Source of the DNA: Planctomycetota bacterium
GTDB lineage: Bacteria; Planctomycetota; UBA8108; UBA1146
DNA length: 64,000 bases
Direction of reading: 5' to 3'
NCBI GenBank assembly: GCA_032128395.1
Contig: JAQBGV010000193.1
Coordinates: 7,764 to 71,763, forward strand
Shown: positions 820-52,660 of the stretch, one piece after another
How the letters are laid out: each line of letters starts with the position of its first letter
How positions within the stretch are numbered: the first letter of the stretch is position 1
Notes under the pieces: generated by a model
The model's database searches: none
What the model saw: the letters and a program-made list of their open reading frames with translations, nothing else
What the model was told of the DNA's origin: nothing
Position numbers and translations under genes: made by a program

Positions 820-2691
820 TTACGAACCACGGTCTCCTCGCCCTTCCAGCGACCCTTGCAGCTCCTTCGCCGCCTCCGCGTCTAGTTCGTCGCTGTGGCA
901 GCTCGCTTTTCCGTCCGCCGCGCCGACCGCCTTCTTCGTCTTCGCGGCGAGACGGTGGATCTCCTCCGGGGACAGCACGCCGCGCGCTTGCAGGATCTGC
1001 TGCTGCTCGTCGGTGAGGGCGGCGCTCCGGACGGTCCCACCGCGTTCGAACCCCTCTGCCTTGCCCGAGGCGAACTCCTGGATCTCCTTGCTGATCCGCA
1101 CGCTGCACCAGTCGTGACCGCACATCGCGCAGAAGTCGGTGTCGACGTCGAGATCCTCGTCGTGGAGGGCGCGCGCGGTGTCGGGATCGAAGGAGAGTTC
1201 GAAGTGGCGCTCCCAGTTGAGAGCGGCGCGCGCTCGCGTCAGATCGTCATCGCGATCGCGGCTGCCGGGAATTCCGAGCGCGATGTCCGCGGCGTGGGCG
1301 GCGATCTTGTAAGCGATGCACCCCTGCTTCACGTCGTCCTTCTTCGGCAGGCCGAGGTGCTCCTTGGGAGTGACGTAGCAGAGCATCGCCGCGCCGTGCC
1401 ACGCCGCGGAGGTCGCGCCGATGGCACTCGTGATATGGTCGTATCCGGGGAAGATGTCGGTGACGAGGGGGCCGAGCACGTAGAAAGGCGCGCCGTGGCA
1501 GAGTCGGCGCTCGAGCTTCATGTTGTACTCGATCTGATCGAGAGGCACGTGTCCCGGGCCTTCGACCATCACCTGGACCCCGTGTCGCCACGCGATCTCG
1601 GTCAGTTCGCCGATCGTCGACAGCTCGCAGAGTTGTGCGGCATCGGTCGCGTCCGCGAGCCCTCCCGGGCGCAGACCGTCCCCGAGCGAGAAGCTGACGT
1701 CGTGCCGCCGCATGATGGTGCAGATCTCCTCGAAGTGCGTGTACATCGGGTTCTCGGCGCCGTGATGGAGCATCCACTTCGCGAGCAGGGAGCCCCCGCG
1801 GCTGACGATGCCGATCAACCGATCGCGGATCGCGGGAAGATGCGCGCGGAGCACGCCGGCGTGGATCGTGAAGTAGTCGACCCCTTGCTCCGCCTGGTGC
1901 GCGATCTGGCCGAGGATCATCTCGCGCGTCAGGTCCTCGATGCGTTTCCCGATGATCATCGAGTAGATCGGGACCGTTCCGATCGGGACGGTGCTCTCGC
2001 GGAGGATCGCCTCGCGGCAGGCGTCGAGATCGCCGCCGGTCGAGAGATCCATCACCGTGTCCGCCCCCCACCGTTCGGCCCACCATAGTTTCTCGACTTC
2101 GTCGTCGGTACCGGAGGAGATCGGCGAGGCACCCATGTTCGCGTTCACCTTGGTGCGACTCGCACGCCCGATCGCCATCGGATCGAGCCCGGCCGCGAGG
2201 TGGGCTCGGTTCGCGGGGATGATCATCCGTCCCGCCGCGACCTCGTCGCGCACCTGCTCGGGGGAGAGGTGTCCCTCCCGGACCGAGACTCGCTGCATCT
2301 CCGGCGTGATCGTTCCGAGGCGGGCGTGCTCGAGCTGTGTCACCGGCTGAAACTTCGCGGGCGCCACCGCCCGGATCCAAGGCCCGAGATCGGTGCGGCC
2401 GTGCCCACCGCACCCGACCGTCGCCTCTTCCGCTGCCTCGATGCGCCAACCCACGGGAAGAAAGTCCCACGCGGTGTGCTCGCTCGGTTCCGGCATCCCC
2501 GGGGTGTCCGGCGAGGAGAAGGAACGGGGACCCCCGATGTCGGAGGCGCGGGCGAAACTCCCGGGAGTCGTGCCGTCGCCGCGAGACGAGGGATTCGCTG
2601 CTCCGTGATGTGGAAGTGGGTGGCTCGGCAGCGGGTGACGGGTGAGTGCGTGACGCGAGCTTGGGTATGGCGGGATGGGGTAGGGGGTCAT
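820..2691 (-). CDS. thiC: phosphomethylpyrimidine synthase ThiC
   Basis: Radical-SAM ThiC hallmarks run through the ORF (e.g. ...[36 protein letters not shown]..., C-terminal [10 protein letters not shown]). The start is chosen at ATG 2691 (MTPYPIPP...) because of the GGAGG SD 5 nt upstream. The track ORF extends to 2934 only because there is no in-frame stop. Confidence 0.88.
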
Positions 2692-2700
2692 CGCATCCTC

Positions 2701-2812
2701 CCGAAGAGAACAGGGCCGCCGAAAAGGACAGGGCCGCCGAAAAGGACAGGGCCGCCGAAGAGGACAGGGCCGCCGAAGAGGACAGGGCCGCCGAAGAGGA
2801 CAGGGGCAGAGG
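2701..2812. repeat. 18-bp tandem repeat (ACAGGGCCGCCGAARAGG) x5 plus partial units, in the thiC 5' leader
   Basis: Direct reading: units at 2710-2727, 2728-2745, 2746-2763, 2764-2781 and 2782-2799, with partial units on both flanks. It lies between the TPP aptamer and the thiC SD/ATG. On the mRNA strand each unit reads CCUCUUCGGCGGCCCUGU. Confidence 0.85.
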
Positions 2813-2827
2813 AGGGCGCGGCCGCGA

Positions 2828-2928
2828 TCGGGCCGGAGCACGCTTCCCTCCGCCGGTACGAACCGGATCAGGTTCTGCGGGTACCTCTCAGCGACCGGAC
2901 CGATCCCGATCGCGCCCCGAGCGCGGTG
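2828..2928 (-). promoter_or_regulatory. TPP (thi-box) riboswitch aptamer upstream of thiC
   Basis: The minus strand reads ...CUCGGGGCGCGAUCGGGAUCGGUCCGGUCGCUGAGAGGUACCCGCAGAACCUGAUCCGGUUCGUACCGGCGGAGGGAAGCGUGCUCCGG. This matches the conserved CUGAGA ... ACCUGAUC-GG-UAAUACC-GCG-AGGGA core of the THI element. Confidence 0.8.
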
Positions 2929-3055
2929 TCCCACCCTACCTGGAGTCGGGAAGGCGAGGAAGGTCCGCGTTCTCGGGGGGATGGTCGACGGAGGCCCGCC
3001 GCCCCTTGCGCCCGCGGCCCGATCGGGATCTCCTTGTGGGATCAGGGAGGACGCC

Positions 3056-3943
3056 GTGGGCCCGCCGCCAACACCAGAACTGCTCGACTGGGTCGCGCGA
3101 ACCGTCGGAACGCCGCGCGTCGTCGCCCCCTGCGGCTGGCCCCAGGGACCCTCCCGAGTCTGGCGAGTCGTCGGCTCGGATCGCGGCCTCTTCTACCTCA
3201 AACAATTTTCCGAGGAGAACAAGCGCGATCAGGAGATCGCCGCGTACGAGTGTTTCGTGCCGGCGCTCCGGGGAGGCGCCGTCTTGCTCCCCGAGCTCGT
3301 CGCCCGGAGCGGGCCCACCCTCCGCTCCCTCCTCTTCAGCGCGCTCGAGGGGACCGTGGTCAGCCGATCCCCACTCGCTGAGGAGGAAGGGATCCGCCTG
3401 CACCGGATCGCGGGAGAGTTCATCCGTCGAATGCACGATCTTCCGTTCGAGGACGATGACACCTTGCCCCTCTCCCAGTCGATCCCCCTCCGGCTCGCCC
3501 TCTGGCTCGAGCGGGGTGGCGATCGACTCTCCGGTTCCGAGGGGGATCTCGCGCGAAGACTCGTCGGGGACGGATCGCTCTTCGCGGGGGATCGCCGCGT
3601 CCCTTGTCACCGCGACTTCCAGACCCGCAACTGGATCTTCGACCAGAATCATCCCGATCGTCTCGGTGTGATCGACTTCGAGCACACGCGTGCCGACCAT
3701 CCTCTGATCGACTGGGTGCGAGTTCACGAGCGCGCGCTGCCGAGATATCCCCGCTGGTTCGAGGCATTCACTCAAGGCTATGGCGCAGCGGAGAATGGCC
3801 GAGCGCTCGATGACGGGATCGCCCTGCGACTGCGAGCACTTTCCGCAGTCCACGCCGTCGGTTCGGTGGTGTGGGGGTCGGCCCATCGCGATGCCGAGTT
3901 CGAGCGGGCGGGTCACGAGTTGCTCGCGCAGCTCCGGAGCTGA
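3056..3943 (+). CDS. phosphotransferase-family kinase (APH/choline-kinase fold)
   Basis: Brenner motif [10 protein letters not shown] (HxDxxxxN) and DFE (VIDFEHT), with a Gly-rich N-lobe [17 protein letters not shown]. Start moved to GTG 3056 (SD GGGAGG 5 nt upstream) so that the divergent thiC promoter and riboswitch are not inside the CDS. The track start is 2981. Confidence 0.55.
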
Positions 3944-16204: not shown

Positions 16205-16496
16205 CGGGGTGCTCCCCTCTTTCCACTCGTCCGACGGGTCCTCGCCGGGTACCCGCCCATCATGGCCCAGGAACCGGGCTTGGGCACGAACTCCAGCCCG
16301 GAGCGAGCCCACCGCGTCCGAAGACTGAGTTGCGCCCAGGGGTGCATTCGTGTTGAAATGCGTCGGCTATCACGCCATCTCGGAGGCTCAGAGGAGGGTC
16401 TCCGAGCGGGCTCGTCTGATCCGAAACAAGAAGCGAAGCATCCTCCCGCGGAATCGGGTCGCTCTGGTCCCGTGCGGTGGGTCGCGATCGTCGAGA

Positions 16497-19400
16497 GTGA
16501 GGTGGGGTGTGACGGTGCTCAATGCCGCGCGTGGGGCATTCATCGCGGCGGTCCTCGGAGCACTGCTCCTGACCTCCCCCGCGCAGGCCTTTACCGGTTG
16601 TGTGAACTCTGCCACCGCCGGCCATTACACCGTCGACTTCCTCGGCGTCGCCTACAACCCAGACGGCACGAGCACCTGGAACTACACCGTCACGTGGGAC
16701 GGTATCCCCCCTTCGCTCAGCCACTTCACGCTGAAGCTCTGCCATCAGGCCGAAGTGATCTCATCCGTTCCCGCGGGAGCGGAGGTCGGGTACGACGGAT
16801 CGACCGGTCTCTACGGGATCAAGTGGGACGACGTCACCATCGAAACCCCGGGCGTTCCGGTCCCGTTCACCTTCACGCTCGATCAGCCCTACGCGATCTC
16901 AGGGACGATCTTCGCGGCGAAGGCGGGGCCGTACCCGAACTTCGGCTGGATCTGCGGGCCGAGCAAGAAGTGCAAACTCGCACTCGTGCCCCCCAGCGAC
17001 CTCGTCTGCACCGTCCTCGATCCGTGCACCTGCGAAACACTGCTGACCTGGACGAACATCAGCGTGGTCGACCTGATCAACGTGCGGGTCGACGGGGTTC
17101 TGGTTGCAACTCTCCCCGGCGACACGACCTCCACCATCATCACCGTGAAGCCCGGGACCCACGCGATCGAGGTCACCGGGGTCATCGATCCTGCCGGCGA
17201 CGGCTACCAGCACGGGGGCGGTTCATACCCCTTTGGTGGCGGCGGGTATGGGGATGATGACGACGACGACGATGACGACGACGACGACGACGATGACGAC
17301 GACGACGACGACGGCAACCCGGGAGACAACGACCAGGAGACCGACCCCGCGATCTGCGAGGTCATCTGCCCCGACCACACCCCGGTCCCCCCCAAGGATC
17401 TCGTCTGCACTCCCGACCCGCTCGACTGCTCGGTCACGGTCTCCTGGGTGAACTCGCGCGACTACACCGAGATCATCGTCTTCCTCGATGGCCTCCCCTT
17501 CGAAACACTGCCGGGGAGTGCGACGAGCACGATGATCGGCGGGCCGCTGATCGGTTCGCACGGGGTCTGCCTGGCGGGCACGACGACGTGCGGCGACCCG
17601 TTCGCCGAGGTCTGCTGCCAGTTTTCCTGCGATGACCCCACCCCACCCCCGGTGACCGACCTCGTCTGTGAGGTCGCGGACATCTGCACCTGCGAGACCG
17701 AGGTCTCGTGGACGAACGGGGCGGCGAACTACGATTCGATCGAGGTGTTCGTCGACGGGAACTCCGCCGCGATCCTTCCAGGGTCGGCGACCTCGACGGT
17801 CGTCCTTCTCGGCGGGCCGGGAGAACACGTGATCTGCGTCGTCGCGACCCGGAACGAGTTCACGAGTGAGTTCGCCTGCTGCGGCGCGAATTGCCCGGCC
17901 ATCCCCGACGATCCTCCTTTCGCTCTGACCTGCGACGCGCCGCCGGCGCCGAATTGCGAGGCGAGCGCGATCTGGCTCGGGGGCGGCGTGTACTCCCAGA
18001 TCGAGGTTCTTCTCGACGGGGTCGTGGCCCAGGTTCTCCCCGGCGATACGTTCGAGACCACCGTGGCGATCCCCACCTCGGGGCCGCACGAACTCTGCCT
18101 GCGGGCGACGACGATCTGCGGGGTCGTGCTTCCGGACGTCTGCTGCACGGTCGAGTGCATCGGACCCCCCGACCCGATCACCGATCTGACCTGCACACTC
18201 GTCGACCTGTGCAAGTGTCTCTTCACGCTCGACTGGACCAACGGGAACCCCGACTACGACACAATCCAGGTCCTGATCGACGGGGTGCTCCACGAACGGA
18301 TCCCGGGCGACACGACCTCGCTCGCGCTGACGCTCCCCACCCCTGGCCTCCACGAAATTTGCCTGGTCCCGGTTCGCGCCGCGCTGCCCGGTCCCGAGAC
18401 GTGCTGCTCGGTGGACTGCCCCGACGTGCCCCCGGCGATGCCGGAGAATCTGGTCTGCACTTTTGACCCTCTGACGTGCATCTTCACGGTGATGTGGTCG
18501 AACCCGGTCCCGTACTCATCGCTCGAGATCTTCGTCGACGGCGTCGCCGCCGGGACCGCTCCGGGGGGCGCGTCCTCCTTCTCGATCCCGTTCCCGCTCA
18601 TCGGCCAGCACGAGATCTGCGTGGAGGGAACGACGATCTGCGAAGAGGTGACCCCCGCCGCGTGCTGTTCGGTCGAGTGCCAGATCCAGCCGCCCCTGCC
18701 GGTGCTCGATCTGGCGTGTGGGGTGGTCGATCCGTGCACCTGCATCGTCGCCGTCGCGTGGACGAACCAGGAGGCGAACTACGTCTCCGTCGAGGTCACC
18801 GTCGACGGAGTTCCATTCGCTTCCTTGGCCGGTACTGCGACCAACCTCGCGGTGACGCTCCCGGGTCCGGGAAACCACGTGATCTGCGTCTTCCCGATCC
18901 GCAACGGGGTCTCCGGCGATCAGGTTTGCTGCAAGGCGAACTGCCCGATCACCGACCCGATCCCCCCCGTGCTGCTCGAGTGTGTCGTCGACAAGCCGTC
19001 CGCGACCGCCACGATCAGTTGGCTGCCATCCGCGCTCTACTCCCAGGTCGAAGTGTTCCTGAACGGCGTGCTGGTCGAGACAGCGCCGGGGGACGCGACT
19101 TCGGCGTCGGTAGTTCTGACGCTGCCCGGCGTGAACACTCTCTCGCTGATCGCGACCACCGTCTGCGGTGAGGTGACCCCCGCGGTGAGTTGTGAGGTCA
19201 CCTCGGGGCTGACCCCGGTGATGATCAACGGACTCAGCTGCTCTCTCGTGTCCCAGTGCACCTGTGACGCGACGGCGACGTGGACCAACGGCGAGCTGTA
19301 CGACTCGATCATCATCCAAGTCAACGGGATCGTGGTCGCCACGCTCCCCGGAGATGCCGTCACGGCAGACTTCACTCTGGGAGCCCCCGGCACGCGCGAG

Positions 19401-20537
19401 GTCTGCGTCGTCCCGGTCATCAACTTGGTCGAGGGAGATGCCGTCTGCTGCATGGTGACCTGCGATGATGTACCGCTGACCCCACCGAACGGGATCACCT
19501 GCGACGTCGGCCCCGCACCCGACTGCGAAACCACCGTGACCTGGCTCAACCACTCGCAGTACGAGTCGATCCAAGTCACGCTCGACGGGGTGGTCATCAG
19601 CACCCAGCCGGGAGACGAGACGCAGACGACCGTGCTGCTCCCCGGCCCGGGTGCGCACCAGATTTGCCTCGTCGCGACGACGATCTGCGCCGACGTGCTC
19701 CCTCCGGTCTGCTGCACCGCGATGTGCGACTTCCCACCGGCGCCGCCGGAGAACGTCGTCTGCACCCTCGACGATCCGTGCCTCTGCACCGGAACGGTCA
19801 CCTGGACGAACGCGGACGCCGACTACGACGAGCTGATCGTCGAGGTCGACGGTGTGGTGATCGCGACCCTCCCCGGCAGCGCGACGAGCGCGCCGGTCGG
19901 ACCGGTCGCCCCCGGCCCCCACAACGTCTGCGTGACCGCGGTGCGGACGGGGCTCAGCTCCCCCGAAGTGTGCTGCGCCCTCGACTGTCCCGGCCCGCCG
20001 GCGCCGATCCCACCGAGCGGCCTGGTGTGTGGGGTCATCGACAATGGAACCTGCACGGTGAGCCTCGACTGGACGAACTCGATGCCGTACGGCGCCATCC
20101 AGATCCTCGCGGACGGGGTCGTCTGGGCCGATCTCGCCGGAAGTGCGACCCACTACGAGGCACCGCTCCCCGGTGGCATCACGAGTTCCGAGCTCTGCCT
20201 CGTCGCGACGACCGAGTGCGGCGACGCCGCCAACCAGGTCTGTTGTACGGTGGAGTGCCAGACCCAGTTCGTCCGAGGGGACTGCAACGTCGACGGAATC
20301 GTGAACATCGCCGACGGCGTCTACATCATGCGATTCCTCTTCCAGGGTTTCACGCCGAGCATCTGCCTCGATGCCTGCGACCACAACAGCGACGGCTTGG
20401 TCGACATCTCCGACGTGGTGTTCATCCTCCACTACATCTTCACCAGTGGTCCGCCCCCGCTCGCACCGTTCCCCGACTGCGGGGTCGACGTGGATGAAGT
20501 CCCGGGGTGCAACACGTATCCGTTCTGCTCGAACTGA
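16497..20537 (+). CDS. giant secreted protein: ~12 tandem Cys-rich ~88-aa modules, poly-Asp tract, C-terminal dockerin-like module
   Basis: Signal peptide ...VLNAARGAFIAAVLGALLLTSPAQA; the start is ambiguous among GTG 16497, 16509 and 16515. The repeating module is DLVCT.DP..C...V.W.N...Y..I.V..DG.....LPG.ATS......PG.HEIC...TT.CG.....CC.V.C, about 264 nt per unit over 16998-20270. D20 occurs at 17253-17312. C-terminus is GDCNVDGIVNIADGVYIMRFLF...DHNSDGLVDISDVVFILHYIFTSGPPPLAPFPDCG...C..YPFC. Confidence 0.8.
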   Translation: MRWGVTVLNAARGAFIAAVLGALLLTSPAQAFTGCVNSATAGHYTVDFLGVAYNPDGTSTWNYTVTWDGIPPSLSHFTLKLCHQAEVISSVPAGAEVGYDGSTGLYGIKWDDVTIETPGVPVPFTFTLDQPYAISGTIFAAKAGPYPNFGWICGPSKKCKLALVPPSDLVCTVLDPCTCETLLTWTNISVVDLINVRVDGVLVATLPGDTTSTIITVKPGTHAIEVTGVIDPAGDGYQHGGGSYPFGGGGYGDDDDDDDDDDDDDDDDDDDDGNPGDNDQETDPAICEVICPDHTPVPPKDLVCTPDPLDCSVTVSWVNSRDYTEIIVFLDGLPFETLPGSATSTMIGGPLIGSHGVCLAGTTTCGDPFAEVCCQFSCDDPTPPPVTDLVCEVADICTCETEVSWTNGAANYDSIEVFVDGNSAAILPGSATSTVVLLGGPGEHVICVVATRNEFTSEFACCGANCPAIPDDPPFALTCDAPPAPNCEASAIWLGGGVYSQIEVLLDGVVAQVLPGDTFETTVAIPTSGPHELCLRATTICGVVLPDVCCTVECIGPPDPITDLTCTLVDLCKCLFTLDWTNGNPDYDTIQVLIDGVLHERIPGDTTSLALTLPTPGLHEICLVPVRAALPGPETCCSVDCPDVPPAMPENLVCTFDPLTCIFTVMWSNPVPYSSLEIFVDGVAAGTAPGGASSFSIPFPLIGQHEICVEGTTICEEVTPAACCSVECQIQPPLPVLDLACGVVDPCTCIVAVAWTNQEANYVSVEVTVDGVPFASLAGTATNLAVTLPGPGNHVICVFPIRNGVSGDQVCCKANCPITDPIPPVLLECVVDKPSATATISWLPSALYSQVEVFLNGVLVETAPGDATSASVVLTLPGVNTLSLIATTVCGEVTPAVSCEVTSGLTPVMINGLSCSLVSQCTCDATATWTNGELYDSIIIQVNGIVVATLPGDAVTADFTLGAPGTREVCVVPVINLVEGDAVCCMVTCDDVPLTPPNGITCDVGPAPDCETTVTWLNHSQYESIQVTLDGVVISTQPGDETQTTVLLPGPGAHQICLVATTICADVLPPVCCTAMCDFPPAPPENVVCTLDDPCLCTGTVTWTNADADYDELIVEVDGVVIATLPGSATSAPVGPVAPGPHNVCVTAVRTGLSSPEVCCALDCPGPPAPIPPSGLVCGVIDNGTCTVSLDWTNSMPYGAIQILADGVVWADLAGSATHYEAPLPGGITSSELCLVATTECGDAANQVCCTVECQTQFVRGDCNVDGIVNIADGVYIMRFLFQGFTPSICLDACDHNSDGLVDISDVVFILHYIFTSGPPPLAPFPDCGVDVDEVPGCNTYPFCSN
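17253..17312 (+). repeat. (GAY)20 trinucleotide repeat encoding poly-Asp
   Basis: gatgatgacgacgacgacgatgacgacgac... gives 20 consecutive Asp codons inside the giant protein gene. Confidence 0.9.
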
Positions 20538-48320: not shown

Positions 48321-51046
48321 ACCACCTCCACTTCGATCGCATGCGTCCCCGGGGGAATCGACGCGCGCAACTCGGCGCCGTCGCTCCCCTCTACGATGCG
48401 CGCTTCCGCGCCGCGGATGATCAGGTGCAGCCCCTCTTGCGTGCGGAAGCCGTTCTCATCCGTGAAGATCTGCTTCGACGTGGCGATGCGGAGCTCGACT
48501 CCACGCTTCCCCACCCCACCATCAGCTGGAGCATCACCCCTCGGAACACCCTGCACGATCACCATGTTGCGGACGATCGAAGCCCCCGCGGTCGAGAACC
48601 TCGGGGTGATCCACTCTTCCACGATCGTGTCGGACGCCGCGTGGGCTCGGCGGAACACCGGACGACGATCGGCGTCCTTGCGGACTCCACGGTGGCGCCA
48701 TCCCGCCTCGCGGCCCGATATCTTCGGCCACGCGTCATCCGGGTGGGCGAGCACTGCGACTGCATCACCGGGGGGAAAGTCGAAGGGGTTGCTCCCCTCC
48801 GGGGTCTCGAGTCGCCCCGCCCGACCCTCCCAGGTGCCGCGCGCGTTGATGAAATCCCCGCGCCACGCCTTCGCGAGGTGCGCGTTCTCCGCGTCGTAGG
48901 CGATCGAGATTCGCTCGGGGTACCCGCAGCAGATCACGCGACCGCTCAGTCCCTCGAAGAACGCTCCGAACAGGATCGGTTCTTCGACCGGGATGATGTC
49001 GTAGGCGCTGCGATCGACGACGAGCCCCGCCGGGAGTGGCGCCGCGTCGCCGAGGGCGAGGTAGCTCCACGTCGCGGCGATCTGGCTTGCGGCGGTGCCG
49101 TCGAGCACGTCGGGGAAGAGCTCGATCCCCTCGGCCCAGAAGCTGGGCATCCGGGTCCCCGGGCGCTTCGACTGAGGGTCGAGCATGTACTCGAGGTACC
49201 ACTTCGGCTGCAGTCGCCCTCCGGTGGTCGCCAAGTCGATCGCCGGCTCCCCGAGAGAGGGGTGTCCGGCGAAATCGTGACAATCGATGCAGCGGAAGCC
49301 GTCGCCACCGGAGAGAAGCCGCCCCGCTTCGACCGCGGCATCGGTGAACGCGGGGATGCCGCCGTCGTCGTCGCCACCGTCTTCGCGGTGGAAGAGTTCG
49401 GCGAGGTCGGAGGCGATCTCCGGCGAGTACTCGGGCATCCGCGTATTCATGTAGGGTCGGACCGGAGCGCCCACACCGATCACTTTCTCTATCCAGTCGC
49501 GCCGGAGTTTCGCGCCGACTCCGGTCAGGTCGGGAGGGAGCCGCCCTTCGTCGCCGAGCTCGGCGGTGCCGGTGAAGCGCGGGTAGGTATCGGCGGTCGG
49601 ACCGCCAAAACCCTCGCGGGCGTGGCAGCTCTTGCAGCCGAGGGAGTCCAGGGAGATCGCGAGGCGGGTCGCATCGTCCGCGGGGACACGAAAGGCGTCC
49701 CGCGAACGGAGGAGGGCGACGATCCCATCGCGCGTCGAGGGGTCGAGCGGAAACCGCGGAGCGCGGGAATCGGCCGGAGGGTCCGGGTCGAGACAACCGA
49801 CCGCTTCCGCCGGCAGCGCAGCCAGGGTCGGAGCTCGCTCGGCGGAGACGCCCCGGTCATGGCACGCGGCACAGCCGAGGGAGAGGTAGAGGCGCTGACC
49901 TTGCGAACGAAGGGTGCGGTCGATCTTCTGGTCCGTGGCGCTCGGTTGGTAGGCGGCGCTGCGCACGCGGAGCGCCTTCACCGGAATCTCCGCCGGATTC
50001 GGTTGGTCGGGCCCGCTCCAGAGAAGGGAGAGCTCCTCCCCGCCACCGTACTCGAACATCGTCACCCGGATCGAGTGCCACCCGGCGTCGAGTTCGAGCG
50101 TTCCGCTCGCGCTCGACGGCGAGTGCATCCCGTCGTGCTCGATCACCGGAGCCTCGTCGATCCACAGCCGCGATCCATCGTCCGAGGTCAGCGTGAAGGT
50201 CCAGATCCCCTGCTTCGGGATGTCGATCTCTCCATCGAGCGCGACCCCGAAGTACTCTTCCCGATGACCGACGGGGAGACCGATCTTCGTCGCGACGCCA
50301 TCGCGCACGGGGGTCGCCCTTTCGAGGTCGGGACCACAGTTCGAAAACACTCCCTCGTAGTACCGCTCGCGCAGCCCGGTCACCATCCGCACCAAGGGGT
50401 TCCCGTCCGCATCCCGCGACTGATCCTCGAGCAGGTACAGCGCGATCGCTCGTACCTCCTTCTCGGAGAGGCGGAGCGATGGCATGAAACCCGAGGGGAA
50501 CAGTTCCGCAGGATTGTGGATGACATCGGACACGTGGCGATAATTCGTCTTGGCCGCGAGTCGGGTTCGCCACCCTGGAACACTGTGGTGGCAGGCTCGG
50601 CAGCCGATTTCGTCGAAGAGACGGCGGCCGAGCTCCGCTTCGCGGGGGTCCGCGCCGATCGCGCTGCGGTCGAACTTGCCGCCGCGGCTCGCGAGGAAGT
50701 GAACGAGAGCTTCGACCGAATCGGCTCGCTCCTCCGCGGGCACCCCCGCGAGAACGTTCGGCATCCTAGTGCCGGGCTTGGTCTTCCACGGATCGGCGAG
50801 GAATCCGCTCAAGTGCGCGGCGGTGTACCGCGGCCCCGCCGTGTGGAGGTTCGGGGCGGGGACCGGAGCGAGGCGCTCCGCGATCGCACCCTCGGCGCGG
50901 TGGCACGCCAGACAGGCATGCTCCCGGACTGCGCGCTCGGCAGCCAGAACGGAGCGATCGATGTGCGCATCGGGGGCCTGACCGTCGAGAGAACCGACGA
51001 GGAGAAACAGGACGAGTAGTGTGAGCGAGAACGGGTGGACCGCCAC
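48314..51046 (-). CDS. multiheme c-type cytochrome domain protein (five CxxCH)
   Basis: CLACH, CRACHH, CAACHD, CKSCHA and CIDCHD. Signal peptide VAVHPFSLTLLVLFLLVGSLDGQA. Start chosen at GTG 51046 (SD AGGAG 5 nt upstream); the track ATG at 51157 has no SD and would leave only 61 nt to the divergent M16 gene. Confidence 0.65.
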   Translation of the reverse strand: MAVHPFSLTLLVLFLLVGSLDGQAPDAHIDRSVLAAERAVREHACLACHRAEGAIAERLAPVPAPNLHTAGPRYTAAHLSGFLADPWKTKPGTRMPNVLAGVPAEERADSVEALVHFLASRGGKFDRSAIGADPREAELGRRLFDEIGCRACHHSVPGWRTRLAAKTNYRHVSDVIHNPAELFPSGFMPSLRLSEKEVRAIALYLLEDQSRDADGNPLVRMVTGLRERYYEGVFSNCGPDLERATPVRDGVATKIGLPVGHREEYFGVALDGEIDIPKQGIWTFTLTSDDGSRLWIDEAPVIEHDGMHSPSSASGTLELDAGWHSIRVTMFEYGGGEELSLLWSGPDQPNPAEIPVKALRVRSAAYQPSATDQKIDRTLRSQGQRLYLSLGCAACHDRGVSAERAPTLAALPAEAVGCLDPDPPADSRAPRFPLDPSTRDGIVALLRSRDAFRVPADDATRLAISLDSLGCKSCHAREGFGGPTADTYPRFTGTAELGDEGRLPPDLTGVGAKLRRDWIEKVIGVGAPVRPYMNTRMPEYSPEIASDLAELFHREDGGDDDGGIPAFTDAAVEAGRLLSGGDGFRCIDCHDFAGHPSLGEPAIDLATTGGRLQPKWYLEYMLDPQSKRPGTRMPSFWAEGIELFPDVLDGTAASQIAATWSYLALGDAAPLPAGLVVDRSAYDIIPVEEPILFGAFFEGLSGRVICCGYPERISIAYDAENAHLAKAWRGDFINARGTWEGRAGRLETPEGSNPFDFPPGDAVAVLAHPDDAWPKISGREAGWRHRGVRKDADRRPVFRRAHAASDTIVEEWITPRFSTAGASIVRNMVIVQGVPRGDAPADGGVGKRGVELRIATSKQIFTDENGFRTQEGLHLIIRGAEARIVEGSDGAELRASIPPGTHAIEVEVVW

Positions 51047-51218
51047 GAAGACTCCTGGTGCAAGCGGGGGACCTCGGCGTTCACCCACGAATGGCGAACA
51101 CCAGCGCCTGAACCTATCAGAATCACGCGAATCGGGGAAGTCGGCGGGGGTCGCCATGGCGTTCGGTACGGGCCTCGGTCACGATGTACTCGACCTCGAT
51201 GCGAAGGGAGTCTGGCCG

Positions 51219-52580
51219 ATGCAGAGCACTTTCACGACCATGGGACGCTGCGCCGCGCGGATCGCGGCAACCGTCATCATCCTCGCCTGCCTCTCCCCCT
51301 CCGCGCTCCCCGCGCAAGAGCTGCGGTTTCCCCTCGAGAACGGACTGCGGGTCATTCTCATCCCCGCCGGGGAGATCCCGCTGACGCCGAAGTCGCGGGT
51401 GGCGGTCGTGATGCTCTTCGACATCGGAGAGTCGCACGACTCGGAGGGTCGCGCGGGGATGGCTCACCTGGTCGAGCATCTCTATGTCACCTCGGCGGCG
51501 GGGGACGCCCCCGCACGGACCGCCGAGGAGTGGTTCCAACGGCACGAGGGACAGGCGAACGCACAGACCGGCCGGGACTACACGGTGATCGCCGCCGTCG
51601 CCTCACCGGACCGGCTCGAAACAGAGCTCCAAGACGCTGCCGCGCGACTCGGGGGGGTCCGGGTCGAATCCGCCGACCTCGAGCGGGAACTCCCCCGGAT
51701 GCGACTCGAACTCGCGAACATGTACGGCGGGATCCCATCGCTCGCGGCCCGCAACCGAGCGCACAATGCGATCGATCCGCTCCCGGGGGGCGTGCCCAAG
51801 GGCGGGGATGTCCGGCAGCTCGAGGGGATCGAGATCGATGAGATCCGGGCGCGGATCCGGGTGCACTACGTCCCGGAGCGTGCGCGCTTGATCGTTGCGG
51901 GAGCGTTCTCGGCGGAGGAGACCCGAGCGAAGATCGAGGAGCTGTTCGGGAAGATCCCTCGACCCGATCTCGAACCACTCCCGCTCCGGAACCCCCCGAA
52001 GTCCAGGGTCGGAGAGCAGATCCAAGTCGCCACGGGAGGCGCTTCCTCCCCGCGAGTGGTCGCCCGCCTCTGGGCCGCTCCCGCACTGACCGAGGCCGGG
52101 GCGGCCGCGTACCTCCTCTACGGTGCGAAGTTCCTGCAGGTCGCGCCGGCGCACGGGGTGACCCCGGTGTTCACGCCGATCGACGACCCCCGCGTCTTCG
52201 GCGGAATCGTGACCGCCGCAGAGGGAGAGAGTGCCGCCGCAGCACTCGGTCACATCGATCGCGCGCTCGCCGCCGCCCTCAAGGTCGAGGGTCCGATCCC
52301 CCGGCAGTGGGCGGAGCGATCCCTCGACAACCTGCTCTCGCTGCGCCCACCCACCCCCATCATGATCGCGACGAACCCGTACCTCGTCGCCTTCGGGGTG
52401 GGCCGTCGAGCACAGCTCGGACTCGATCGCGATGCGCTCGTCACGGGGATCTCGGAGGCGTCGGAAGAAGACCTGGCGAAGCTGCGGGAGACCACGCTCC
52501 ACTCTGCTCGGTCGGTGACCGTATCGATCGGCTTCCCCTCGACGAGTTCCACCCCGAAGAGTGAAGGAAACGAAGAATAA
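51219..52580 (+). CDS. M16-family (pitrilysin/insulinase-like) zinc peptidase, secreted
   Basis: Inverted zincin motif HLVEHL (HxxEH). Signal peptide MQSTFTTMGRCAARIAATVIILACLSPSALPAQ. SD AAGGGAG. Confidence 0.7.
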   Translation: MQSTFTTMGRCAARIAATVIILACLSPSALPAQELRFPLENGLRVILIPAGEIPLTPKSRVAVVMLFDIGESHDSEGRAGMAHLVEHLYVTSAAGDAPARTAEEWFQRHEGQANAQTGRDYTVIAAVASPDRLETELQDAAARLGGVRVESADLERELPRMRLELANMYGGIPSLAARNRAHNAIDPLPGGVPKGGDVRQLEGIEIDEIRARIRVHYVPERARLIVAGAFSAEETRAKIEELFGKIPRPDLEPLPLRNPPKSRVGEQIQVATGGASSPRVVARLWAAPALTEAGAAAYLLYGAKFLQVAPAHGVTPVFTPIDDPRVFGGIVTAAEGESAAAALGHIDRALAAALKVEGPIPRQWAERSLDNLLSLRPPTPIMIATNPYLVAFGVGRRAQLGLDRDALVTGISEASEEDLAKLRETTLHSARSVTVSIGFPSTSSTPKSEGNEE

Positions 52581-52620
52581 CCTCGCAGAACCGAGCGCGG
52601 TCGACACCGACCGTCTCGCT

Positions 52621-52660
52621 CCCCGTGCCGATCCCCGTGCCGATCCCCGTGCCGATCCCA
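52621..52660. repeat. 12-bp tandem repeat (CCCCGTGCCGAT) x3.3 between convergent genes
   Basis: Direct reading at 52621-52660. Confidence 0.8.

Follow-up and report, generated by a model that had tools for sequence, protein, structure and literature searches.

The leader of thiC in a 64,000-nt stretch of DNA from a Planctomycetota bacterium (assembly GCA_032128395.1, contig JAQBGV010000193.1; this whole stretch is called the window) shows a thiamine pyrophosphate (TPP) riboswitch aptamer followed by a minisatellite of 18-nt units, which is located between the aptamer and the Shine-Dalgarno sequence (SD) of the gene. The host is a Phycisphaerae-type planctomycete. The array is non-coding, is absent from the leaders of the other species compared and differs by exactly two units in a second, nearly identical strain. 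These features are best explained, in our judgement and with moderate confidence, by an ordinary SD-sequestering TPP riboswitch on thiC that tolerates a young, non-coding and slippage-prone minisatellite in its expression platform. All features of the leader are on the minus strand, and the positions of paired or transcribed elements are given in mRNA order, from higher to lower.

Anatomy of the thiC leader

Analysis with cmscan identified a TPP (THI-box) aptamer of Rfam family RF00059 at positions 2828-2929 of the minus strand, with 64.0 bits (gathering score 54.3), an E value of 3e-10 and the full model covered (positions 1-105). It is on the same strand as thiC, 147 nt 5' of the thiC ATG, as is usual for the leader of a thiamine gene, and it is the single aptamer of this leader. 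The aptamer is a canonical member of RF00059, in agreement with a preliminary description of this DNA, and is predicted to bind TPP. Helix P1 is formed by 2925-2920 paired with 2844-2839. Upstream of its 3' strand, the 3' strand of P4 and the adjacent junction contain the sequence GGAGGG (2851-2846).

The 3' strand of P1 ends at 2839, and 147 nt separate it from the thiC ATG (2691-2689). The SD, GGGAGG (2702-2697), was read from the sequence, is conserved in relatives and lies 5 nt (AUGCG) before the ATG. The linker had been described as consisting almost entirely of repeats, which is correct for 105 of its 147 nt; the 42 nt preceding the array are non-repeat linker and hold a previously unnoticed anti-SD tract, CGCCCUCCU (2818-2810). 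The CCCUCC of this tract is the exact complement of the aptamer GGAGGG, which makes the latter a candidate partner of the anti-SD in the absence of TPP. No terminator-like site was found in the region 2600-3100, therefore an intrinsic-terminator platform was rejected and control of thiC by the leader is most likely exerted at the level of translation.

The 18-nt tandem array

Tandem Repeats Finder (TRF) reports an array at 2701-2805 (minus strand) with a period of 18, 5.8 copies, 96% matches, zero indels and a score of 189, which corroborates the five 18-nt direct repeats noticed previously between the aptamer and the SD. The units, CCCUGUCCUCUUCGGCGG on the mRNA, are head to tail and near-identical, as in minisatellites or variable-number tandem repeats (VNTRs), and TRF shows no other array of comparable strength in the window. 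A search with the unit CCTCTTCGGCGGCCCTGT, allowing up to three mismatches, gave 5 matches in front of 0.2 expected, a number reached by none of 100 shuffles. The unit was found nowhere else within the window, and a dispersed repeat family was rejected on this basis. On the mRNA, the array starts with three units of the CCUCUU type (CCCUGUCCUCUUCGGCGG), continues with two units of the CCUUUU type (CCCUGUCCUUUUCGGCGG) and ends in a 15-nt terminal copy, UUCUCUUCGG (written CCCUGUUCUCUUCGG on the mRNA), which leads straight into GAGGAUGCGAUG, the segment that contains the SD.

Each unit contains the quasi-palindrome CGG-C-GGCC-CUG, which may also form hairpins in single-stranded DNA and so promote slippage. 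Readings of the array at the DNA level, as iteron-like or regulator-binding direct repeats or as a CRISPR, were set aside. The array lies in a transcribed leader and has no spacers, its near-perfect copies (96% matches in the window and 97% in the second strain) point to a recent expansion, and related species do not have it.

Leaders of related species

We fetched 89 related loci (L001 to L089), most of them from metagenome-assembled genomes of Phycisphaerae or other Planctomycetota. L001, L002 and L003, from the closest other species, encode ThiC proteins with 84% identity to that of the window and show the same divergent gene order, in which thiC is adjacent to a gene encoding an APH-family phosphotransferase. 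In the window, this gene (3056-3943, plus strand; PF01636, E 1.4e-17) bounds the intergenic region that contains the leader. The same arrangement was found in L087 and L089. L089 belongs to the same species as the window and is described below.

All three have TPP aptamers, which were missed at the default Rfam threshold; those of L001 (1858-1954) and L002 (1853-1964) were found by E value with 53.1 and 53.5 bits, respectively (E ~1e-7), just under the gathering score of 54.3. The linker of these leaders has 47 nt and no repeat, and includes CGCCCUCC-(10-12 nt)-GGGAGG-NNNCG-ATG; a longer part of the leader reads AGCGUG-ACCGC..GGCCAUCG-CCCUCC-(10-12 nt)-GGGAGG-CNGCG-AUG. In L086, whose ThiC shows 83% identity, a CCUCCC lies right after P1, followed by its own hairpin and then GGGAGG. 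Thus, a CCCUCC or CCUCCC anti-SD tract is present at the equivalent place in the repeat-free leaders of L001, L002 and L086, and the aptamer GGAGGG (2851-2846 in the window) is conserved in the same three loci.

Alignment of the leaders shows the array of the window as a clean insertion between conserved flanks. Since the window keeps the anti-SD tract CGCCCUCCU 5' of the array, the array fills the loop between the anti-SD, which would be ancestral, and the SD. According to TRF, no comparable leader array exists among the 89 related loci except in L089. The array being absent from the leaders of other species and present only in L089, sequence comparison indicates that it is a recent, lineage-specific expansion within this loop. 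Related genomes without the repeat and with a conventional helix had been named as an observation that would overturn the proposal of an unusual expression platform, and this is borne out in part: other species are repeat-free and have a conventional anti-SD/SD linker, therefore the array is a species-level add-on and not a designed expression platform.

As a separate observation, no TPP aptamer was found upstream of thiC in L004, L084, L085 and L087/L088 at E <= 0.01. The four of these aptamer-less relatives that were fetched by protein share 81-84% ThiC identity, and L087 keeps the APH-thiC order. From these sequences, the clade seems to have undergone repeated loss or replacement of the riboswitch.

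The thiC gene and its start codon

The thiC coding sequence (820-2691, minus strand; ATG 2691-2689 and stop 822-820) encodes a phosphomethylpyrimidine synthase of 623 amino acid residues. The protein shows the PF01964 domain at residues 118-535 (E 1e-178), NCBIfam ThiC equivalogs match the product, and an identical 623-residue protein (P0001) was retrieved. Homologous proteins from metagenome-assembled genomes of Planctomycetota and Phycisphaerae have 605-674 residues and 74-84% identity, and cover 94-98% of the query. About 115 residues precede PF01964 (2345-2691); this N-terminal extension is clade-specific and conserved (P0002-P0060), with the invariant motifs HGAx-, TAWDFLPxGW and GCxGH. 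The C-terminal tail of about 85 residues (823-1090) has no Pfam match.

The conserved part of ThiC starts around residue 27, and the ATG at 2691 is the sole in-frame ATG, GTG or TTG between the aptamer and this part. Upstream, the only other in-frame starts are a GUG in the 3' strand of P1 (2841-2839) and a GTG 5' of the aptamer (2934). The start context GGGAGG-NNNCG-ATGAT is common to relatives: L001, L002, L085 and L086 show an SD GGGAGG or AGGAGG located 4-5 nt before the ATG, and L087 a CGGAGG 9 nt before it. As the preliminary description had reported, the thiC frame continues upstream of the ATG as (RPCPLR)n across the repeats; it is open as far as the GTG at 2934. None of the three frames of the unit contains a stop codon, therefore the open (RPCPLR)n frame is uninformative. 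In-frame open repeats of this kind in GC-rich leaders can mislead open reading frame (ORF) callers and readers alike.

Translation of the repeats, in the form of a ThiC that starts at GUG 2841 with an N-terminal (RPCPLR)n extension, would agree with a unit period that is a multiple of three (18), with a frame that is open from 2934 to 2691 and preserved in both alleles (5.8 and 7.8 copies), and with the in-frame position of this GUG 4 nt after the aptamer GGAGGG. However, the linker read in the thiC frame has a mean codon log-likelihood ratio of -0.59 and a GC3 of 0.59, the worst of the three frames, in comparison with +0.48 and 0.87 in the thiC core, and it uses rare codons (per 1000: TGT 2.8, CCT 5.3, CTT 4.4 and TTT 4.3). 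Neither genome-like codon usage nor a conserved upstream start, as a coding tandem repeat should show, was found: relatives start at the ATG after the SD, a conserved SD and ATG lie immediately 3' of the array, and the upstream GUG sits within helix P1 and, in L001 and L002, belongs to a frame other than that of thiC, one that ends at a UGA overlapping the ATG. Translated repeats, which had been named as an observation that would overturn the initial interpretation, are thus extremely improbable. Comparative sequence data confirm ATG 2691 as the thiC start and, owing to the codon usage, the conserved SD and ATG and the position and frame of the upstream GUG, indicate that the repeats are leader RNA and not protein.

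Two small upstream ORFs (uORFs) were also noted. In the window, a mini-uORF AUG CGA UGA (2688-2696, minus strand) overlaps the thiC AUG; the GCGAUGA start context is kept in L001, L002, L085 and L087, and is ACGAUGA in L086. The P1-strand GUG of L001 and L002 opens another uORF, which stops at the UGA overlapping the thiC AUG. These overlaps may reflect translational coupling or chance.

Folding of the leader

The leader was folded with ViennaRNA equilibrium models, in which forcing P1 mimics the TPP-bound state. In the unconstrained minimum-energy fold, the anti-SD CCCUCC (2816-2811) pairs with the aptamer GGAGGG (2851-2846). When P1 is forced, the SD (2702-2697) forms 6 bp with CCUCCU (2815-2810), and CGC (2818-2816) pairs with GCG (2694-2692). 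In this state, the ancestral anti-SD accounts for 0.82 of the pairing probability of the SD in a leader with no units, 0.65 with 5 full units and 0.62 with 7. The leader therefore shows the spacing of the SD, an anti-SD between aptamer and SD and the absence of an intrinsic terminator that are proper of an SD-sequestering platform.

According to these models, without TPP the anti-SD CCCUCC would be held by the aptamer GGAGGG, leaving the SD free for the ribosome. With TPP, the aptamer would close through P1 (2925-2920 with 2844-2839) and free the anti-SD, which would then pair with the SD GGGAGG and block initiation at ATG 2691. In this scheme, an aptamer strand, the anti-SD and the SD would compete in the classical three-way manner, and the sequence elements involved are also present in the repeat-free relatives.

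The fate of the array in the TPP-bound state was also predicted. With P1 forced, it folds on itself, the CGG-C-GGCC-CUG segments of different units pairing together, and its UCCUCUU tracts are 85-98% unpaired. The insert is probably tolerated because this mutual pairing of the units would keep the anti-SD and the SD near each other, and because the array brings no start codon, stop codon or terminator. With the array in place, the aptamer would have more time to bind its ligand until the polymerase reaches the SD, and occasional capture of the SD by the pyrimidine tracts of the array is possible. The effect of the array on thiC expression is most likely small, and the array would be nearly neutral.

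The units had been proposed to act as redundant SD-sequestering copies, each with a C(UUCG)G tetraloop-like core, and neither proposal withstood the controls. The duplex between a unit dimer and the SD region has a predicted energy of -13.6 kcal/mol, in relation to -16.7 +/- 3.0 kcal/mol for composition-matched shuffles, 86% of which pair with the SD as well or better; the conserved CCCUCC is the probable true anti-SD. The fraction of shuffled units as good as or better than the real one was 0.86 for SD complementarity, 0.24 for aptamer complementarity and 0.60 for self-folding of the array, and the leader shows no unusual stability against shuffles (z = 0.63). A purpose-built anti-SD unit, an aptamer-complementary unit and an extra-stable array were rejected on account of these values. 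C(UUCG)G hairpins were equally rejected, since the probability of their closing pair is <=0.001 in the ensemble. Thus, the repeat sequence lacks the specific fit to its regulatory target, here the SD, that would be expected of a phase-variable locus in a 5' untranslated region (5'-UTR).

Copy number in a second strain

The 90%-identity cluster of the window ThiC has a second member, P0121, which is identical in 622 of 623 residues and is encoded at L089 (assembly GCA_032124895.1, contig JAQBCW010000068.1). Over the 5691 columns of the alignment of L089 with positions 5655-1 of the window, there are 4 mismatches and only one gap. This gap has 36 nt, which is exactly two units. The array of L089 has 7.8 copies: five units of the CCUCUU type, two of the CCUUUU type and the same terminal copy, with the internal order of the types kept. 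Therefore, the two genomes, both of them assemblies, show a whole-unit copy-number polymorphism (7.8 in L089 and 5.8 in the window) of the kind that defines VNTRs. As the only indel in 5.7 kb, it bears out the suggestion of a slippage-prone copy number made in the preliminary description. The array would have arisen after the split from the relatives with a 47-nt linker and would gain and lose units since then, most likely through slippage during replication or through unequal recombination. A two-unit 27-mer and an SD-junction 24-mer, used to look for further strains among JGI metagenome contigs, gave 0 matches.

Alternative readings of the array

Several observations weigh against a tolerated and nearly neutral minisatellite. 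The polymorphism comes from only two strains, both apparently metagenome assemblies, where tandem copy number can be misassembled. A difference of exactly one 57-nt repeat unit is also all that separates L002 from L003, so that this lineage, or its assemblies, tends to show such differences. In the unconstrained models, the SD is unpaired with a probability of 0.12-0.20 when there are up to four full units and of 0.04-0.06 when there are at least five, because GUCCUCUU of unit 2 (2783-2776) captures the SD (GGGAGGAU). The repeat-free controls show no clean switching in the equilibrium model either: the SD-unpaired probability, unconstrained and with P1 forced, is 0.27 and 0.18 in L001, 0.016 and 0.014 in L002, and 0.15 and 0.06 in L086. 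For this reason, the fall in SD accessibility with at least five units is taken only as a hint, and the comparison of free with P1-forced equilibrium folding was rejected as a predictor of copy-number effects. Finally, the pyrimidine richness of the array could reflect a function. On the mRNA strand, the array has no A and 73% pyrimidine, more than any other 105-nt stretch of the window (top 0.03%).

The first of these observations would fit an artefact, with the array or the copy difference created by short-read assembly of a shorter repeat. The origin of both sequences, the difference between L002 and L003, which shows that such differences arise between assemblies, and the lack of matches in JGI contigs are on its side. 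Nevertheless, two independent assemblies that differ by single-nucleotide polymorphisms carry the array at the same site, and the ordered unit variants match in both (CCUCUU repeated, two CCUUUU and the terminal UUCUCUU). These internal variants split the identical stretch, so that an array of 105-141 nt is within reach of long k-mers or reads, and we regard an artefact as very improbable. The 57-nt tandem repeat itself is perfect, lies 3' of thiC (L002 4159-4289) and has 2.3 copies in L002 and 1.3 in L003, two independently assembled contigs with an identical ThiC and 100% identity elsewhere, which is either a further minisatellite polymorphism or an assembly collapse.

A second alternative, which sharpens the idea of the preliminary description, is that the array is an adaptive tuning locus. 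The UCCUCUU tracts would be extra anti-SD decoys, the added length would widen the co-transcriptional window for TPP, and slippage would heritably reset basal thiC expression, TPP sensitivity or both, as a mutational rheostat on a metabolite sensor. Precedents in which the number of 5'-UTR repeats sets expression are Haemophilus influenzae hmw1A, where (ATCTTTC)n repeats are part of a 5'-UTR hairpin (PMC12721329), and Moraxella catarrhalis uspA2, where 6-23 copies of (AGAT)n modulate expression (PMC4679880). The copy-number difference between near-identical strains, as the only indel in 5.7 kb, is consistent with such a locus, as are the capture of the SD by unit 2 in the unconstrained ensemble (0.82 of the pairing), the lower accessibility with at least five units and the pyrimidine tracts predicted to be displayed when the aptamer is closed. 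On the other hand, the complementarity between unit and SD is no better than that of shuffled units, the folding model fails to reproduce switching even in the repeat-free controls, and the array is missing from every other species examined. Moreover, thiC is a housekeeping biosynthetic gene of a free-living planctomycete and not a typical contingency gene, and two alleles only are known. We consider adaptive tuning possible, but not probable. A heritable, slippage-driven rheostat within the riboswitch, in which the units alter both the distance between aptamer and SD and the number of UCCUCUU decoys, is unlikely. If true, changes in copy number would set new levels of basal thiC translation, of TPP sensitivity or of both, and possibly of Rho loading as well, and sub-populations would vary in their commitment to thiamine synthesis; it would be the first contingency-type locus that works through a riboswitch expression platform.

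The composition of the array suggests a third alternative, a Rho-loading platform. The A-free, pyrimidine-rich array of 105-141 nt would act as a Rho utilization (rut)-like site that recruits Rho and terminates thiC transcription when TPP blocks translation, which would add a transcriptional layer to the control. Rut sites are stretches of about 70-80 nt of C-rich, G-poor and poorly structured RNA. The array has 42% C, 33 YC dinucleotides (top 0.5% of the window) and a C-minus-G skew in the top 4%, its pyrimidine tracts are predicted to be unpaired, and a linker of the ancestral length, 47 nt, would not suffice for Rho to load. Coupling to Rho is established for translational riboswitches of Escherichia coli, among them the TPP switch thiM (PMC5499598). 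However, the array is not poor in G (27%), the models predict pairing for about half of each unit, and the relatives do without the array. In addition, a rut site 5' of the SD is never covered by ribosomes and would not be TPP-conditional by itself. Both the recruitment of Rho by the array and a TPP-dependent termination of thiC transcription are therefore improbable in our view, and the tolerated minisatellite in an otherwise ordinary translational riboswitch is the reading that we retain.

Other repeats in the window

Two further repeats were observed outside the thiC region. A (GAC)18 repeat at 17259-17313 encodes a run of about 20 aspartates in an ORF of 1395 amino acids (16350-20537, plus strand), and a perfect 12-nt tandem repeat of 3.3 copies, TCCCCGTGCCGA, lies at 52620-52659, just 3' of the ORF 51021-52580 (plus strand), in an apparently intergenic position.

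Comparison with known systems

Full-text literature searches for riboswitches whose expression platform contains a VNTR or a tandem repeat brought up no comparable case, which is weak evidence of novelty and not proof. If the array is neutral, it shows that the anti-SD/SD loop of a translational riboswitch can absorb an insertion that expands it roughly tenfold. If it modulates expression, the leaders with 0, 5.8 and 7.8 units form a natural allelic series, which addresses the much-debated question of how the distance from aptamer to SD and competing anti-SDs set the kinetic window and the dynamic range, and which would link mutational regulation by repeat number with metabolite sensing.

The leader resembles the SD-sequestering TPP riboswitches of the E. 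coli thiM/thiC type in its THI-box aptamer before thiC, in the lack of an intrinsic terminator and in the anti-SD between aptamer and SD, whose sequence complements the SD as well as a strand of the aptamer. It differs from them in the anti-SD/SD loop, which has about 107 nt (143 nt in L089) in comparison with 10-12 nt in the relatives and is expanded by a perfect tandem repeat of polymorphic copy number. Tandem riboswitches also show repetition in a riboswitch leader; however, the thiC leader has one aptamer, and the repeated part is an 18-nt linker segment and not the ligand-binding domain.

Like hmw1A and uspA2, thiC has a tandem repeat that is transcribed but non-coding, is located 3' of the promoter and 5' of the start codon, and varies in copy number from strain to strain. 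The repeats of hmw1A and uspA2 have units of 4-7 nt, belong to surface-protein genes of host-adapted pathogens and have proven effects, whereas the array described here has an 18-nt unit, lies in the riboswitch leader of a housekeeping vitamin gene of an environmental planctomycete and would have at most a hypothetical effect. Intergenic minisatellites or VNTRs of the MIRU-VNTR type are alike in their units of tens of nucleotides, their near-perfect copies and their whole-unit differences between strains, and they require no function. In contrast to them, the thiC array is located inside a riboswitch expression platform and abuts the SD, with two alleles known. Hence, the known component of this system is a canonical TPP riboswitch, and the new one is an anti-SD/SD loop expanded about tenfold by a copy-number-variable 18-nt minisatellite.

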